From IMG/VR virus record IMGVR_UViG_2700989509_000032: 5,615 bases of DNA. One strand, written 5' to 3'. Below the pieces are notes generated by a model. The model searched no databases. It was not told where the DNA came from and was given only the letters and a program-made list of their open reading frames with translations. Position 1 is the first letter of the stretch, and each line of letters opens with the position of its first letter. Source of the stretch: a virus (Duplodnaviria; Heunggongvirae; Uroviricota; Caudoviricetes). Below are positions 1 through 4,400 of the stretch, one piece after another. Both the position numbers and the translations under genes were made by a program.

Positions 1-655
<655 letters not shown>

Positions 656-663
<8 letters not shown>

Positions 664-880
664 GGTGCACCTCCTGCACATCAGCCATGATAATTTTTCC
701 GGCCTTATCCAGTGCCTGATCGGCTTTTAGCTGCACAAATGCTAAATAATGGGAGATGCATTCTGATTCTCTGGCTGCGTGTTTATGCGCCACACCAGCG
801 ATAGCAGAAATCTCAATAAGTGAATCCATCAGCGTTTTGATAGCGTCTACCGCTGCATCAGGCCATGTTGCATTACACAT
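656..880 (-). CDS. Hypothetical small protein, 74 aa, middle gene of the overlapping operon
   Basis: ATG at 878-880 with AGGAGGTG 5 nt upstream. Start overlaps the stop of the upstream gene (ATGTGTAA) and its own stop overlaps the start of the downstream gene (ATGCATAA). No family recognised. Confidence 0.6.
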
Positions 881-1076
881 GTTCCACCTCCTGGCGAATA
901 CGGGCGGCGAATACCATCACGCAGCCATCAGGAGATTGCTGGCGTGCTTCCTGTTCGCTGGTGGCCTCGATGTGAATTACGCGCGGTTGTGCCGTGCTCA
1001 GGGCGATAAAACGCCAGATGTATTTATTCAGGTTGTGCGAGTCCCGCCCTTGCGGGTGTGTGGTATGATTTCTCAT
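873..1076 (-). CDS. DUF987-like small protein (YeeT/YpjJ-like), 67 aa, first gene of the operon
   Basis: Track ORF 873..1271, trimmed to the internal ATG at 1074-1076 (GAGG 5 nt upstream) because the N-terminal extension is junk-like and would run through the operator region. MRNHTTHP...KYIW...GCVMVFAARIRQE resembles recalled DUF987 proteins (MRIHQQHP...KYRW...GVLAVFAERRKD). Confidence 0.5.
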   Translation of the reverse strand: MRNHTTHPQGRDSHNLNKYIWRFIALSTAQPRVIHIEATSEQEARQQSPDGCVMVFAARIRQEVEHV

Positions 1077-1171
1077 AGCTACCTCGATACTCTTGCTATC
1101 GTTGGTGGTTAGACGCCCTGCATGTGTGCCACCACTGCGGGGCGTTGTCGTTTCTGCACCTTGCATCAACA

Positions 1172-1227
1172 AGGTGTTGAACACCAATTTAAGCCCAGGT
1201 GTTAAACACGTCAAGTGTTGAACACTT
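1172..1227. promoter_or_regulatory. Three palindromic operator-like sites (GGTGTT-N-AACACC type) in the divergent intergenic region, overlapping a candidate promoter for the 1275 gene
   Basis: AGGTGTTGAACACCA at 1172-1186, AGGTGTTAAACACG at 1197-1210 and the perfect palindrome AAGTGTTGAACACTT at 1213-1227. A TTGAAC -35-like hexamer inside site 3 (1218-1223) and a CATACT -10-like hexamer at 1239-1244 lie upstream of the ATG at 1275. Confidence 0.45.
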
Positions 1228-2179
1228 ATTTTTTTCCTGCATACTGCATTTGTTTTTTGTAAGGGGTACACAACATGGCGACAAAAGCAGTAAACGCAAA
1301 ATCACAAACAGTTGCGGCAAGGGTTCCGCATGAAGTTATGAACAATGTTGAGGCGGTAAAAATGCCTGGTGAAAGTACAGGGCAGTTTGTAACAGCAGCA
1401 TTAAAGCGAGAAGTTGAATACCGCCAGCGCCGCAAGGCCAAAGAACAGGAGTAACCATCACCAGCGCCGTGGTGTGAGGAACTACGGTGCATTGTTTTAC
1501 AGGGCTGCGCCATGACCAACAAAGAATCAACCAATACACCATCACCGGCACGGAAAAGACAGCGCAGAAAGATAGCGTACGAGCATGAGTCAAACAGATT
1601 CGCGCCCTGTGCGTTTATCCTTGAGAAATTCCTTAAAGAGTACAGGCGCACAAAAATGGGGTCGCATACCTGGAAAACATCGCGGCATGGCAATGTTAAA
1701 GAGCAGGAATAGCCCACCAGCAAGCCAGCATATTCACCATAATGACCCTCAGTTAAACATAGAGTCATTGGTGCAAAGCTGACACATTGCCCACCAGCCG
1801 CAAATCTGGCATTGTTGGCGATGCGTTCAAGTATGTAGCTTTCCCACTGGCGGCCCTCTGCGGTCGCCTTTGTTTTATCCAGAACGAAATCAGACATCAG
1901 ATTGATCAGCACCTGGCGACCTGACAAAATCGCATCAGTCGCGCCACCAGCAAAATTTTTTGCTTTCCGGACAGTGTGACCAACGACATTTTGCAGCAAA
2001 ATATTCTGCATTTCTGGCGTGCTGTAGTAACGGTGATCAGCGCCTTCACTCTGTGCGACCACAACGCTATAATCTGCCTCGTAGACAGTAAGCAATATGG
2101 CGCAGTAGGCTATTCGTTCACAAAGGCGCTCCGGCAACGGGGCGCTTTCTCTTTTTGTAACGGTCAGAGCGTTACACAT
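1226..2179 (-). CDS. Hypothetical protein translationally coupled to the antirepressor-like gene; only the N-terminal ~150 codons look coding, true 3' end uncertain
   Basis: ATG at 2177-2179 with GGAGG 9 nt upstream, overlapping the stop of the 2172..2972 gene (ATGTGTAA). The first 140 codons have 51 G-initial codons (36%); after about plus coordinate 1750 the frame becomes T1-rich and Cys-rich (antisense-like) but stays open to 1226, running antisense through the 1275..1454 gene. Confidence 0.35.
   Translation of the reverse strand: MCNALTVTKRESAPLPERLCERIAYCAILLTVYEADYSVVVAQSEGADHRYYSTPEMQNILLQNVVGHTVRKAKNFAGGATDAILSGRQVLINLMSDFVLDKTKATAEGRQWESYILERIANNARFAAGGQCVSFAPMTLCLTEGHYGEYAGLLVGYSCSLTLPCRDVFQVCDPIFVRLYSLRNFSRINAQGANLFDSCSYAIFLRCLFRAGDGVLVDSLLVMAQPCKTMHRSSSHHGAGDGYSCSLALRRWRYSTSRFNAAVTNCPVLSPGIFTASTLFITSCGTLAATVCDFAFTAFVAMLCTPYKKQMQYAGKK
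1275..1454 (+). CDS. Small ribbon-helix-helix-like DNA-binding protein, 59 aa (putative regulator or antitoxin-like)
   Basis: ATG at 1275 with AAGGGG 8 nt upstream; translation MATKAVNAKSQTVAARVPHEVMNNVEAVKMPGESTGQFVTAALKREVEYRQRRKAKEQE; TAA at 1452-1454. 26 of 59 codons start with G (coding signature), no Cys, basic C-terminal helix. Below the track length cutoff. Conflicts with the antisense long ORF 1226..2179. Confidence 0.5.
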   Translation: MATKAVNAKSQTVAARVPHEVMNNVEAVKMPGESTGQFVTAALKREVEYRQRRKAKEQE

Positions 2180-2972
2180 GGCTGTTTTCCTCCATGCGAC
2201 GGGCTAACCAACGCTGCGAAAGACGAATTAATTCAGCCTTCCGCTGGTGGTAGTCCTGGCCTAACTCAATCAGCGTGATATTGCTCTGCTCAAGGTAAGA
2301 AAGGTGCTCAAGCTGCAACGTGCTCATGTGGTCGCGTGGTTCGCCTGTAATGCCGTTCGCCAGTGCCCACTGTTTTGCAGTCATGCCACCCAGCACGATA
2401 CGCGCCAGCATGTTCGCTTCCGTGGTGTAGTGGTGCTGGAGTGTGTTTTTACCCAGTTCAGCCCGGTACGCCTCCAGCGCGGCACACATTGGCTTAAAGT
2501 AGCTGGCAACTGTGATACGGGCTTTCAGTTCCCGGCGTAACGCTGCGGAACGAACAGGCGCAACCTTGTGTAGCTCCTCCTCGCATTTGATAAAGTACTG
2601 GCGAACGGCGCGGCCCTGTTCGGTACGTTCGACCATCGCCAGTTCTTTCGCCATGTTCACTGTGATGATGTACTCAAGAGCGGTTTGCTGGCGAGATTTT
2701 GCGCTCACCGGATCGGGTCGGCTCAAATATTCAACAACCTCATAATCCACGCCTTCCGTGAACCCGTATTCTTCAATGCGCCCCTTGATCCACGAACGGA
2801 AAACGCGCCCTACACCTAACGCCTTATGTAACGCTCTGGCGCTAACAATAGTGGTTTCACTCCCGCCAATAACGCCGGAAATAATCGGGATAATTTCGCC
2901 GAAATTTTGCAGATTCTGGTTTTCAGGCCGAACGAAGCCCCGCCCCTGTACGGGCGTTTTTGGAAATTTCAT
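2172..2972 (-). CDS. Phage antirepressor-like protein (AntA/Rha-type N-terminal domain), 266 aa
   Basis: ATG at 2970-2972 with AGGAG 5 nt upstream. N-terminal region ...ARALHKALGVGRVFRSWIKGRIEEYGFTEGVDYEVV... and ...ITVNMAKELAMVERTEQGRAVRQYFIKCEEEL carry the recalled signature of antirepressor (AntA/Rha/Bro-N-like) domains. Family call is from memory. Confidence 0.75.
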   Translation of the reverse strand: MKFPKTPVQGRGFVRPENQNLQNFGEIIPIISGVIGGSETTIVSARALHKALGVGRVFRSWIKGRIEEYGFTEGVDYEVVEYLSRPDPVSAKSRQQTALEYIITVNMAKELAMVERTEQGRAVRQYFIKCEEELHKVAPVRSAALRRELKARITVASYFKPMCAALEAYRAELGKNTLQHHYTTEANMLARIVLGGMTAKQWALANGITGEPRDHMSTLQLEHLSYLEQSNITLIELGQDYHQRKAELIRLSQRWLARRMEENSHV

Positions 2973-3049: not shown

Positions 3050-3247
3050 TCAGGTAGCTGTTCCGCGTGATTCCGCAATACGCTGATTAATCCACTCGTC
3101 AATTTCACTCTCAACGAAAGCAATAGCTCGCGAGCCAATTTTAACTGATGCAGGAAATTTACCTTGCCCCATAAGGCGATAAATCCATGCCTTGCTATAT
3201 CCAGTTCTACGCTGAACTTCTGTTAAACGAATAAGCGTATTTGACAT
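3050..3247 (-). CDS. alpA: AlpA/Vis-family prophage transcriptional regulator / excisionase-like HTH protein, 65 aa
   Basis: ATG at 3245-3247 with GAGG 7 nt upstream. MSNTLIRLTEVQRRTGYSKAWIYRLMGQGKFPASVKIGSRAIAFVESEIDEWINQRIAESRGTAT carries the AlpA-family hallmark E-x-EIDEW-x-x-QR and an HTH (TGYSKAWIYRLM). Confidence 0.9.
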   Translation of the reverse strand: MSNTLIRLTEVQRRTGYSKAWIYRLMGQGKFPASVKIGSRAIAFVESEIDEWINQRIAESRGTAT

Positions 3248-3315
3248 ATATTTACCTCATAACGTCTACTCAATTTGACGAGGTAATCATGGCACAGAAA
3301 TAACGAATATTTTCA

Positions 3316-3460
3316 TACCCTCAGGCCTAATGGTTACCGGAAGGAAATCTACCCTAAGGGTGATGGTAATCGGGAGGAAATCTACCCTAAGGGTGATGGT
3401 AAAATTGACGGGGAAGATAAAAAAATACCCTCAGGGTAACAGTAAATCACCCTCAGGGTA
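3316..3460. promoter_or_regulatory. Cluster of four complete and one partial ACCCT-N-AGGGT palindromes upstream of alpA; candidate operator or iteron array
   Basis: ACCCTAAGGGT at 3351-3361 and 3383-3393, TACCCTCAGGGTA at 3426-3438, ACCCTCAGGGT at 3449-3459, plus half-site TACCCTCAGG at 3316-3325. All lie in the 227-bp gap between the alpA start (3247) and the stop of the 3475..4272 gene. Confidence 0.5.
3339..3402. repeat. Tandem direct repeat, 2 x 32 bp, each unit containing an ACCCTAAGGGT palindrome
   Basis: 3339-3370 GGAAGGAAATCTACCCTAAGGGTGATGGTAAT and 3371-3402 CGGGAGGAAATCTACCCTAAGGGTGATGGTAA are near-identical head-to-tail copies. Confidence 0.85.
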
Positions 3461-4272: not shown

Positions 4273-4400
4273 ACGCACACCTCAGCGTCCTCTACTGTAG
4301 TGGCTGTACCAGTCCGTCGAGGTGTACGGATTTTCGGGAGCGACCCTAGACACAGCCTTTTCTTTCGTCGCTCAAAGTCTACTACTGTATACTCAACCAG

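Follow-up and report, generated by a model that had tools for sequence, protein, structure and literature searches.

We analysed a 5,615-nucleotide stretch of viral DNA (the window) in which a small gene and an operon diverge from a group of palindromes. The explanation that fits best, and which we consider likely from comparison of the sequence with its relatives, is that a 59-aa protein of the YlcI/YnfO family, probably of the ribbon-helix-helix (RHH) type, acts as a repressor at three sites in a phage-inducible chromosomal island (PICI) of the EcCICFT073 type. The sites, the family membership of the protein, the promoter geometry, the covariation between protein and sites, and the swap of a cassette between related islands were all established in the analysis.

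Table 1. Features of the window discussed in the text, with positions counted from its first nucleotide
Feature	Coordinates	Strand	Remarks
Icd/Kil-like 67-aa gene, first of the leftward operon	873..1076	-	NF033153, E 3.8e-20
Conserved leader hairpin, between the operators and the Icd/Kil-like start codon	1113..1145	-	inverted repeat
O1, candidate operator	1174..1184	none	GTGTTGAACAC; 13-bp palindrome 1173-1185
Leftward promoter (Icd/Kil-like and replication operon)	1186..1214	-	TTGACG 1214-1209, 17-nt spacer, TAAATT 1191-1186
O2, candidate operator	1199..1209	none	GTGTTAAACAC; 11-bp palindrome 1199-1209
O3, candidate operator	1215..1225	none	GTGTTGAACAC; 15-bp palindrome 1213-1227
Rightward promoter candidate (RHH gene)	1218..1245	+	TTGAAC 1218-1223, 16-nt spacer, CATACT 1240-1245
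Eta-like long ORF, 317 aa here	1226..2179	-	shortened by a stop at 1226-1228
59-aa YlcI/YnfO-family protein, probably RHH, proposed repressor	1275..1454	+	ORF; Shine-Dalgarno AAGGGG at 1261-1266
Terminator-like hairpin and T-run, directly past the RHH stop codon	1464..1490	+	consensus match only
66-aa basic protein, downstream of the RHH gene	1512..1712	+	phrog_21027, E 7.8e-32
antA, Bro/AntA family	2172-2972	-	PF08346, E 2.5e-23
alpA	3050-3247	-	PF05930, E 2.4e-19

Palindromic sites and the two divergent promoters

An earlier note on this DNA had pointed out three near-identical palindromes, about 25 and 16 bp apart, upstream of the small gene. We found exactly three copies of GTGTTNAACAC in the window when at most one mismatch was allowed (O1 to O3), with start-to-start distances of 25 and 16 bp, which bears out this description. 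By chance 0.23 copies were expected, and no further copy was found in the rest of the window or in L001, the 21.5-kb locus that includes the island. Read from the sequence, the palindromes come to 13 bp at O1, 11 bp at O2 and 15 bp at O3.

The three sites fall on promoter elements. O1 lies across the point at which the leftward promoter is predicted to start transcription, and O2 occupies the spacer of the same promoter and abuts its -35. This promoter was picked up by the promoter scan tool; the CGTCAA adjoining O2 is kept in most related loci, and a -10-like hexamer lies 17-18 nt away where this was checked. O3 overlaps the -35-like TTGAAC of the rightward promoter, which indeed lies inside the site as had been claimed. 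The rightward promoter matches 8 of 12 consensus positions, which is weak by consensus; it was read by eye because its score fell below the threshold of the scan tool. Most related loci have TATACT or CATACT equally far from the ATG.

The palindromes might have clustered by chance, or might serve recombination or DNA structure and have no part in regulation, which we regard as exceedingly improbable. Three copies were reached in none of 200 shuffles, the positions of the sites relative to the promoter hexamers are conserved, and all copies within a locus have changed together, in 13 classes.

The 59-aa protein and its covariation with the sites

The 59-aa protein matched NF041551 (YlcI/YnfO; DUF3950) with 59.7 bits, where the curated cutoff is 30 (E 2.1e-16, all of model positions 1-42 covered), and an identical protein in RefSeq carries the name YlcI/YnfO family protein. 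The family spans the Enterobacterales, with S10, R16, H19 and G32-E33-S34 invariant. The protein has the two-helix core of RHH proteins, with a G-x-S/T/N turn starting helix 2, and we propose a beta-strand at residues 11-17, a helix at 19-28, the turn at G32-E33-S34 and a second helix at 35-58. A fold prediction, which the earlier note had suggested, modelled the helices of the core with confidence; the monomer model contained no strand, and residues 1-20 had a pLDDT of 59-68. The N-terminal residues show an alternating pattern that is statistically weak. Arc aligned in register with residues 9-31, in a weak alignment (hhalign E 0.008, probability 5%) that places its DNA-reading residues Q9, N11 and R13 on residues 12, 14 and 16. 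These observations point to an RHH fold, which we call probable and not conclusive. A tblastn search of the phage collection with the 59-aa protein returned no match, and in the literature on YlcI, YnfO, DUF3950 and PICIs combined with ribbon-helix-helix or master repressor, the protein was nowhere described as a regulator.

Another reading is that the 59-aa protein is the RHH antitoxin of a toxin-antitoxin pair, with the 66-aa ORF or the Kil-like protein as its toxin and the palindromes serving toxin-antitoxin autoregulation only. We judge this quite improbable and reject it because a partner gene is not conserved. The 66-aa ORF is present in just a few related loci (EcCICFT073 has a 57-aa homologue at the same place) and matched no toxin family among the Pfam, NCBIfam and PHROG profiles. 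Past helix 2, the RHH protein ends in a basic tail of only about 10 residues and carries no toxin-binding domain. Neither the conserved adjacent toxin nor the toxin-binding C-terminus of type II systems was found. Moreover, of the three sites, O1 and O2 fall on the divergent promoter and not on the promoter of the RHH gene itself.

Support for the repressor reading came from 34 related loci of many genera, each of which was searched without bias for its most repeated 11-mer. The layout is kept in thirty-odd related loci, and in 31 of the 34 the sites lie at about -102, -77 and -32 from the RHH ATG. The sites at about -102 and -77 are the equivalents of O1 and O2. The site at about -62 (O3) occurs only in the QT[VIL]AAR class, formed by the window, L002, L006 and L046, and the autoregulatory site at about -32, which sits just after the -10 in most relatives, is absent from the window. 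The overlap of a site with the -35, pointed out in the earlier note, is a peculiarity of this specificity class.

The hexapeptide at residues 11-16 fell into 13 classes, each with its own site, for example KKLEAR with GTGTCAGCCAC, KRFDVR with GTGTCCGACAC and QSVTAR with GTGTAAGACAC; the site ends are usually GTG...CAC, and S10 and R16 do not vary. This covariation could partly reflect linkage rather than recognition, because the operators directly neighbour the 5′ half of the gene. L006, from Kosakonia, has the operator of the window and a QTIAAR strand, and its Icd-like protein, AlpA and integrase are 35%, 35% and 27% identical to those of the window. The near-identical E. coli island L038 showed the reverse arrangement. 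From 891 to 1100, no 30-nt step falls below 87% identity to the window; identity is about 70-93% over the leader hairpin and reaches 97-100% from 1370 to 1429, but it is only 33-73% across 1161-1369, which covers the operators, the promoters and residues 1-31. We propose that the operators, together with the first 31 residues, make up a specificity cassette that can be exchanged, like the immunity types of phages.

These comparisons also bear on the possibility that another factor (AlpA, the Icd/Kil-like protein, or a helper-phage or host protein) binds the sites and that the 59-aa protein does something else, which we think unlikely. In its favour, PHROGs label the Icd-like families 'transcriptional repressor'. 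However, this label most likely traces to the historical 'cI' ORF of P4, which is still annotated as a repressor, and immunity in P4 is carried by RNA (PMC10111431). The window and L007-L009 have AlpA proteins of 80-84% identity, and the window and L038 have Icd-like proteins of 91% identity, but the operators differ in both comparisons. A host or helper factor would leave the 13 island-specific site classes unexplained, and the only coding sequence within the swapped cassette, besides an antisense stretch of the eta-like ORF, is the N-terminus of the RHH protein.

The island, its leftward operon and the antisense reading frame

Judged by gene order, the window belongs to a PICI of E. coli of the EcCICFT073 type. 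From the tRNA-Thr end, L001 carries int, alpA, antA, the RHH gene, the Icd-like gene, DUF4222, a DUF5906 primase, ProQ/FinO and PerC, and EcCICFT073 shows the same order with the same pair of RHH and Icd-like genes. The co-oriented int and alpA, the variable Bro zone and the primase replication zone are those of Gram-negative PICIs of this type, which measure roughly 14 kb and adjoin a tRNA gene.

The divergent operon had been labelled DUF987 in the earlier note. No ORF tested, including the three divergent ORFs between 169 and 1076, matched Pfam DUF987, and the label was dropped. On its family matches, the operon is that of an Icd/Kil-like gene followed by the DUF4222/primase replication genes of a PICI satellite. 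The Icd/Kil-like gene overlaps the next ORF by 8 nt at its 3′ end. Its product is homologous to P4 Kil in that the Kil region of the historical 'cI' ORF of P4 matched the same NF033153 model (E 7.8e-21), while direct BLASTP between the two was weak (E 0.08). In the phage collection, the Icd-like protein matched one record, which was satellite-sized. The leader hairpin upstream of this gene showed compensatory changes in 11 of 13 predicted pairs in an alignment of 22 leaders. An Rfam scan of the leader gave no significant family (best, R1162-like antisense RNA, 16.5 bits, E 1.5), and no immunity RNA of the CI/C4 type, with its seqA-type target in the leader, was found in the window, where C4 and isrK gave no match even with E up to 10 on 1030-1300. 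The relative L042 carries both C4 (77.6 bits) and isrK (66 bits).

In intact relatives, a long minus-strand ORF with the Icd/Kil-like domain at its end encloses the RHH gene and its operators, which lie antisense to it. The start of this eta-like ORF overlaps the last 8 nt of antA, and the ORF passes antisense through both the 66-aa gene and the RHH gene. In the window, the loss of one base breaks the frame; with one more T at window position 1229, the frame of L001 runs on to the Icd/Kil-like stop codon. As a result, the Icd/Kil-like domain is the end of a longer in-frame ORF, as in P4, in L001 (443-codon stop-free frame, 435-aa ORF), in EcCICFT073 (433 codons) and in most relatives, but not in the window. 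At 117 at-risk positions we counted no T-ending codon against 35.9 expected, and by this measure the frame is kept free of stop codons by selection. These stop-avoidance tests ruled out that the long ORF is an annotation artefact, and the precedent of P4 eta explains it. The earlier note had missed the antisense nesting of gene and operators, which bears on how the switch may be overridden.

The selected minus-strand frame, together with the 435-aa protein annotated in many E. coli records, could suggest that the long 'Icd-like protein' (134 or 435 aa) is the real gene, the 59-aa ORF no gene, and the palindromes coding or origin-type repeats. We hold this to be very improbable. The 59-aa protein has a curated family model, residues invariant across genera and a confident helical model, whereas the minus-strand translation of this stretch abounds in Cys and Ser, does not resemble natural proteins and has a family match only at its Icd-like end. 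Furthermore, the equivalent in P4, eta, matters through its translation and holds an internal promoter (PMC10111431). Since P4 eta is translated and yet has an internal promoter, the plus-strand repressor gene and the minus-strand ORF are compatible and do not exclude each other.

Proposed control of the island and comparison with known systems

The idea of the earlier note that one RHH-type repressor controls two divergent promoters is supported by the family membership, the fold comparison, the promoter geometry and, above all, the comparative covariation; binding, repression and the reading residues we infer from the sequences. According to our model, the 59-aa protein would bind the three GTGTT-N-AACAC operators as an oligomer. 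Occupancy of O1 and O2 would shut the promoter of the Icd/Kil-like gene and the DUF4222/primase replication operon, and the island would be quiescent because of this block. The protein would also limit its own synthesis, because O3 overlaps the -35 of its own promoter. Residues 12 and 14 of the proposed beta-strand would read the specificity of the site. The upstream and co-oriented alpA/antA region is the presumed source of read-through into the eta-like ORF: AlpA-activated transcription, sustained by eta-like translation as in P4, would traverse the repressor gene and, by this analogy, may reach the kil and replication genes, bypassing the repressed promoter. This override may not work in the window, because the eta-like frame is broken there.

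AlpA is the activator of EcCICFT073, and Gram-negative PICIs are reported to be induced through it, while those who described EcCICFT073 called the global repressor of these islands unclear (PMC6092414). We tentatively suggest, at chances somewhat below even, that the YlcI/YnfO-type RHH protein is this missing master (immunity) repressor of Gram-negative PICIs of the EcCICFT073 type, with a cassette of operators and reading head that sets a dozen or more immunity types. Under this proposal, the antisense nesting of the gene and its operators would be deliberate, the surrounding eta-like ORF would stay open for the sake of anti-termination, and AlpA-driven, translation-protected read-through would both bypass the repressed promoter and silence repressor synthesis, which would make the system a protein-based counterpart of the RNA immunity of P4 in the same scaffold. 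As satellites, Gram-negative PICIs are widely distributed, and they mobilise genes for virulence and defence. If our reading is right, the YlcI/YnfO (DUF3950) family gains a function, and EcCICFT073, as the model island, acquires a specific repressor candidate whose operators are defined. The classes of specificity, about a dozen, would then be a natural set of orthogonal repressor-operator pairs and might predict cross-repression among islands. An ORF under selection for nothing but its open frame, with a repressor gene nested antisense in it, is also a clean case of selection on overlapping frames.

The arrangement resembles several known systems. Arc and Mnt of the phage P22 immI region are RHH proteins of 53-83 aa whose palindromic operators lie over the close divergent promoters Pant and Pmnt, and they combine repression of the opposing operon with autoregulation. 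The window likewise pairs a small proposed RHH protein with palindromes over divergent promoters. However, its protein has no significant sequence similarity to Arc, there are three or four separate sites of 11-15 bp here instead of one 21-bp operator, the controlled genes would be the kil and replication operon of a satellite, and another ORF encloses the repressor gene in antisense orientation. In the immI operon of P1 (c4 RNA, icd, ant), an Icd-family gene also comes first; downstream expression needs translation of icd, and the promoter is under the protein repressor C1. The window shares the Icd-family gene at the head of the operon, whereas the P1 repressor is unrelated and encoded elsewhere, and no c4-like RNA was detected in the window.

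YlcI (DLP12) and YnfO (Qin) of E. coli K-12, both DUF3950, are close likenesses in that the window protein passes the model bearing their names, and YlcI shows the same strand-helix-turn-helix pattern by eye. Unlike the window gene, YlcI has nohD and not an Icd-like gene as its neighbour, in a lambdoid prophage, and the sequence upstream of it showed no repeated GTG-N5-CAC sites. The Stl proteins of Gram-positive PICIs are much larger and of the helix-turn-helix type, in contrast to the far smaller and probably RHH-type 59-aa protein. Nevertheless, Stl and Rpr, the master repressors of these islands (SaPIs), are also encoded divergently from the excision and replication operon of the satellite and keep it quiescent, and Stl is inactivated through binding of helper-phage proteins (PMC6092414).

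A comparable scaffold is that of P4 with its nested kil and eta genes, in which translation of eta from the upstream promoter prevents termination, according to the summary of Forti et al. 1999 in PMC10111431. The window differs from P4 in that the transcript of the internal promoter of P4 is controlled by the CI RNA, and in that eta of P4 encloses neither a divergent protein repressor gene nor operators. As in P4, a long ORF ending in a Kil/Icd-like protein of the same NCBIfam family comes after an AlpA homologue, with a promoter inside the long ORF and small ORFs and a primase downstream. The leftward promoter is the analogue of PLE, the constitutive promoter internal to eta, and the homologous frame is kept open by selection in this module.

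Operator sites and promoters between the divergent genes

Across the whole 5,615-base window, GTGTTNAACAC (at most one mismatch) occurred three times against 0.23 expected, and none of 200 dinucleotide-preserving shuffles gave three copies, confirming an earlier note that three palindromes lie between divergent genes. The copies (O1, O2 and O3) are spaced 25 and 16 bp, start to start, and no further copy was found in the related 21.5-kb locus of E. coli N1420 (L001), which spans the whole island and chromosomal flank. The 59-aa ORF proposed in that note was confirmed from the sequence and is preceded by AAGGGG; the DUF987 identity it gave to the neighbouring operon was wrong, as no Pfam DUF987 match was found.

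A promoter scan together with reading of the sequence placed a leftward promoter among the sites, and a weaker rightward candidate was read from the sequence at a position that suits the ATG at 1275. O2 fills the spacer of the leftward promoter and touches its -35, O1 covers the expected start point (near 1179), and TTGAAC of the rightward candidate lies inside O3, 3 bp right of the leftward -35, bearing out the suggestion that the third site overlaps a -35-like hexamer. Because O1 and O2 lie on the leftward promoter and O3 on TTGAAC, a bound protein would block both promoters; the leftward one would be blocked at two positions.

Coordinates of features in the window
Feature	Position	Strand	Detail
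Transposase fragment	5-127	-	Rfam isrC, 150 bits
Fused ORF	169-663	-	165 aa
Icd/Kil-like gene	873-1076	-	first of leftward operon
Eta-like ORF	1226-2179, on to 873 in L001 (L001:8769-10073)	-	in a stop-free frame of 443 codons with the extra T of L001
Leader hairpin	1113-1145	-	5' of Icd/Kil-like start codon
O1	1174-1184		palindrome
O2	1199-1209		palindrome
O3	1215-1225		palindrome
Leftward promoter	1214-1209, 1191-1186	-	-35 TTGACG, 17 nt, -10 TAAATT
Rightward promoter, weaker candidate	1218-1223, 1240-1245	+	-35 TTGAAC, 16 nt, CATACT
AAGGGG	1261-1266		precedes 59-aa ORF
59-aa ORF	1275-1454	+	proposed RHH repressor
Palindrome cluster	3315-3460		just 5' of alpA
int-alpA RNA motif	4289-4356	-	Rfam RF02996, 45.5 bits

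The 59-aa protein scored 59.7 bits on NCBIfam NF041551 (cutoff 30) and also matched phrog_949, and 74 database homologues were identified in Escherichia, Salmonella, Klebsiella, Pectobacterium, Serratia, Proteus and Xenorhabdus. Among 37 aligned sequences M1-A2-T3, N7, S10, R16, H19, G32-E33-S34, Q37-F38, E46 and R50 were invariant, and residues 11-15 and the helix 1 surface were variable. Arc contacts bases through Q9, N11 and R13, and these fall on residues 12, 14 and 16 in an in-register but weak profile alignment (E 0.008); a CopG alignment runs through the G-x-S turn. Foldseek and sequence searches of the PDB and Pfam gave no match. The ribbon-helix-helix (RHH) fold suggested in the earlier note is likely but not proven: the AlphaFold2 model (mean pLDDT 80.7) gave two confident helices (19-28 and 35-58) and Arc aligned in register, but the N-terminus was of low confidence, the strand was not formed in the monomer model and the Arc match was weak.

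Two further proteins were noticed. K-12 YlcI (L049:8251-8445), one namesake of the family, also has a strand-helix-turn-helix pattern, but its context is unlike that of members on phage-inducible chromosomal islands (PICIs): ylcI is divergent from nohD across a 388-bp gap that, by eye, seems to contain a lambda-type cos site, and no GTG-N5-CAC repeats were seen there. Downstream of the first RHH gene in another locus lies a second 59-aa ORF (L040:3685-3864, plus strand), unrelated to it and with an N-terminus like that of Arc (PPFQFRLDPDLREKM...). A hairpin upstream of this ORF is similar, by eye, to the one in the leader beside other RHH genes, and the whole looks like a tandem second regulatory module.

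Covariation of the sites with the presumed DNA-reading strand

Related loci came from a scan of one genome per species (36 loci) and from look-ups of further homologues. Without presupposing a pattern, we took the 135 nt 5' of the ATG from the window and from 34 related loci (35 sequences in all) and looked for the 11-mer repeated most often, in either orientation. At least three copies, at about -102, -77 and -32, were found in 31 of the 34 related loci. In the QT[VIL]AAR class, which includes the window, a further copy stands at about -62. Neither the window nor L002 has the copy at -32; both have those at -102, -77 and -62. Two loci (L015, L025) have two copies each. No repeated site was found in L004, whose upstream region is unrelated and has no Icd-like gene.

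Which site is repeated varies from locus to locus and follows the hexapeptide formed by residues 11-16: loci of the same class have an identical or closely similar site. In the island EcCICFT073 (hexapeptide QALKAR) the site is GTGTGGCCCAC, as in the QSLKSR class, and K14 is common to both.

Repeated site for each hexapeptide class
Hexapeptide	Site
QT[VIL]AAR	GTGTT[G/A]AACAC
QSVTAR	GTGTAAGACAC
QSLKSR	GTGTGG[C/T]CCAC
KKLEAR / RKLEAR	GTGTCAGCCAC
KKIDVR	GTGTCAGACAC
KRFDVR	GTGTC[C/G]GACAC
QKLQ[A/T]R	GTGGACTCCAC
QKIHAR	GTGGAACAC
QKMSAR	CTGGCACCCA
QKTSVR	GTGnnGGACAC
QKIQAR	GTGGAGTACA or CTGGATTCCA
QALRAR	GTGTAGACCA
AQKKIR	GTGGGGGTACA

That the copies within each locus changed together argues for one island-encoded reader. 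Two other candidate readers do not follow the sites: the AlpA proteins of the window and L007-L009 share 80-84% identity, and the Icd-like proteins of the window and L038 share 91%, yet the operators differ in each case. Linkage by itself could yield a correlation of site and hexapeptide, and two dissociations matter for this reason. A Kosakonia locus (L006) shares the operator and strand of the window, with identities to it of 35% for the Icd-like protein, 35% for AlpA, 27% for the integrase and 60% for the RHH protein. Identity between the window and an E. coli locus (L038) never falls below 87% in any 30-nt step from 891 to 1100 and is about 70-93% over the leader hairpin as far as the O1 edge; it drops to 33-73% across 1161-1369 and is 97-100% from 1370 to 1429. 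In the alignment the divergence begins inside O1, after GGTGT, and stops at the G32 codon; therefore, the swapped stretch comprises the operators, the promoters and residues 1-31. The L038 operator (GTGTAAGACAC) and strand (QSVTAR) are both unlike those of the window.

A long minus-strand frame antisense to the RHH gene

The one difference between L001 and the window across this region is an extra T in L001 (window position 1229), which opens a stop-free minus-strand frame that begins around the antA end (first ATG at 2179, 8 nt inside antA), runs antisense through a 66-aa gene and the RHH gene and over the operators and leader, and enters the Icd-like gene in frame. Of the 32 sequences examined, 31 have this frame open through the RHH gene. 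In most of these it reaches the Icd-like stop codon or about the Icd-like start position, and many of the long ORFs start with a good Shine-Dalgarno sequence. In the 165 nt 5' of the RHH ATG the frame is stop-free in 26 of 29 distinct sequences, against 1/29 and 0/29 for the two remaining frames of that strand.

The two strands share their wobble positions within the RHH gene, and an antisense stop arises where a CAN codon follows a T-ending one or a TAY codon follows one that ends in T or C. In 32 distinct RHH genes, none of the 117 at-risk codons with a T-ending synonym ends in T, versus 35.9 expected if T were used as often as in identical codon boxes at other places in these genes (nominal P 2e-20, overstated because the sequences are related). 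Position 36 alone has nine different codons, none T-ending. T-ending cases occur only in L004, the locus outside this architecture. By both tests, stop-free upstream sequence and codon choice, the eta-like frame is kept open by selection.

Phage P4 offers a known precedent. Summarising Forti et al. 1999, PMC10111431 describes kil as the terminal part of a longer ORF, eta, with a constitutive promoter inside eta; eta is coupled to the alpA homologue and is translated only on transcripts of an upstream late promoter, and termination is prevented when eta is translated. The P4 Kil region and the window's Icd-like protein match the same NCBIfam model, and the nested arrangement is matched by the minus-strand ORF ending in the Icd/Kil-like gene. 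By this analogy, stop avoidance is explained. Relative to P4, the operators flanking the internal promoter and the divergent repressor gene antisense within the eta-like ORF appear new.

Annotation of the Icd-like gene is inconsistent: 134 aa in N1420, where PGAP calls it up to and overlapping the RHH start codon (L001:8766-9170), 66 aa in CFT073 (L048:15852-16052) and a 435-aa 'Icd-like protein' in many other GenBank records (protein P0075). The PHROGs label of the family, 'transcriptional repressor', is probably inherited from the obsolete 'cI protein' annotation of P4.

The island and a proposed switch

About 100 complete E. coli genomes contain a chromosomal island with 99.8-100% identity to the window. 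In N1420 the island adjoins the tRNA-Thr gene next to proA and carries, from the tRNA end, genes for an integrase, a 265-aa hypothetical protein, AlpA and an AntA/Bro-family protein, then the 59-aa 'YlcI/YnfO family protein' gene and the 66-aa gene, both on the opposite strand, followed by the Icd-like gene, several small ORFs, DUF4222, a DUF5906 primase, ProQ/FinO and PerC. This is the published Gram-negative PICI organisation of integration, Bro, replication and late zones (PMC10111431). Similarly, in the model island EcCICFT073 of CFT073 the YlcI/YnfO protein (C_RS30120) is divergent from an Icd-like one (C_RS30125) between alpA and the primase.

The window's copy looks damaged in three ways. 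First, it has 7 T (1229-1235) versus 8 in L001 and L002, and a stop at 1226-1228 cuts the eta-like ORF to 317 aa; the exact product is in 11 contigs, whereas the 435-aa variants listed add up to more than 1,000 contigs, and the shorter run may reflect either true mutational inactivation or a sequencing error in the homopolymer. Second, about 77 bp are absent relative to L001, fusing two small ORFs (121 and 77 aa) into one whose product occurs in 35 contigs. Third, homology to L001 ends at 196, at an IS3-type transposase fragment (HTH_Tnp_1, E 3.5e-4, just below the Pfam cutoff), which suggests from sequence that an insertion sequence removed the left part of the island. The isrC match encodes the transposase N-terminus, and what the isrC model describes seems to be the beginning of a transposase gene.

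Those who described Gram-negative PICIs left the repressor question open (PMC6092414). Our literature search found no regulatory function described for the YlcI/YnfO (DUF3950) family, no mention of its protein as a candidate repressor in EcCICFT073-type PICIs and no account of its gene nested antisense in a selected eta-like ORF. On comparative and structural evidence, we propose the YlcI/YnfO protein as a candidate for this repressor. In quiescence, RHH protein made from its own weak promoter would occupy O1-O3, closing the leftward promoter that serves kil and the replication genes, and would limit its own synthesis. On induction, by analogy with P4 and EcCICFT073, a helper phage would turn on alpA, whose product activates island transcription in EcCICFT073 (PMC6092414). 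The alpA/antA transcripts would be translated through the eta-like ORF and thus shielded from Rho. Crossing the repressor gene antisense, they would extend into kil and the replication genes and so bypass the repressed promoter, and convergent transcription would in addition hamper repressor synthesis. The closest analogue is P22 Arc/Mnt, a familiar kind of switch in which an RHH repressor has operators over divergent promoters.

Several other elements were noticed. The leader hairpin is conserved: over 22 loci, 11 of its 13 predicted pairs show compensatory changes. No Rfam family fits it, the best being an R1162-like antisense RNA (E 1.5). Downstream, to 1077, lie a conserved UCUAACCAC motif and a small stem with the Shine-Dalgarno in its loop. 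No match to C4 or isrK immunity RNA was found in the window. In the leader of an E. coli locus with a KKLEAR-class RHH protein and operators (L042, 2492-2677, minus strand), C4 antisense RNA scored 77.6 bits and isrK 66 bits. Both lie within a 186-aa 'Phage_ASH' ORF with an Icd-like domain at its end, and protein and RNA immunity seem to coexist in some islands. The cluster 5' of alpA holds five copies of the palindrome TACCCT[A/C]AGGGT, including a 33-bp tandem duplication; these may be bound by AlpA or by a different regulator acting on the alpA promoter. The int-alpA RNA motif, above its gathering score, lies between the integrase gene and a 267-aa ORF and is also present in L003, L007, L009 and L026.
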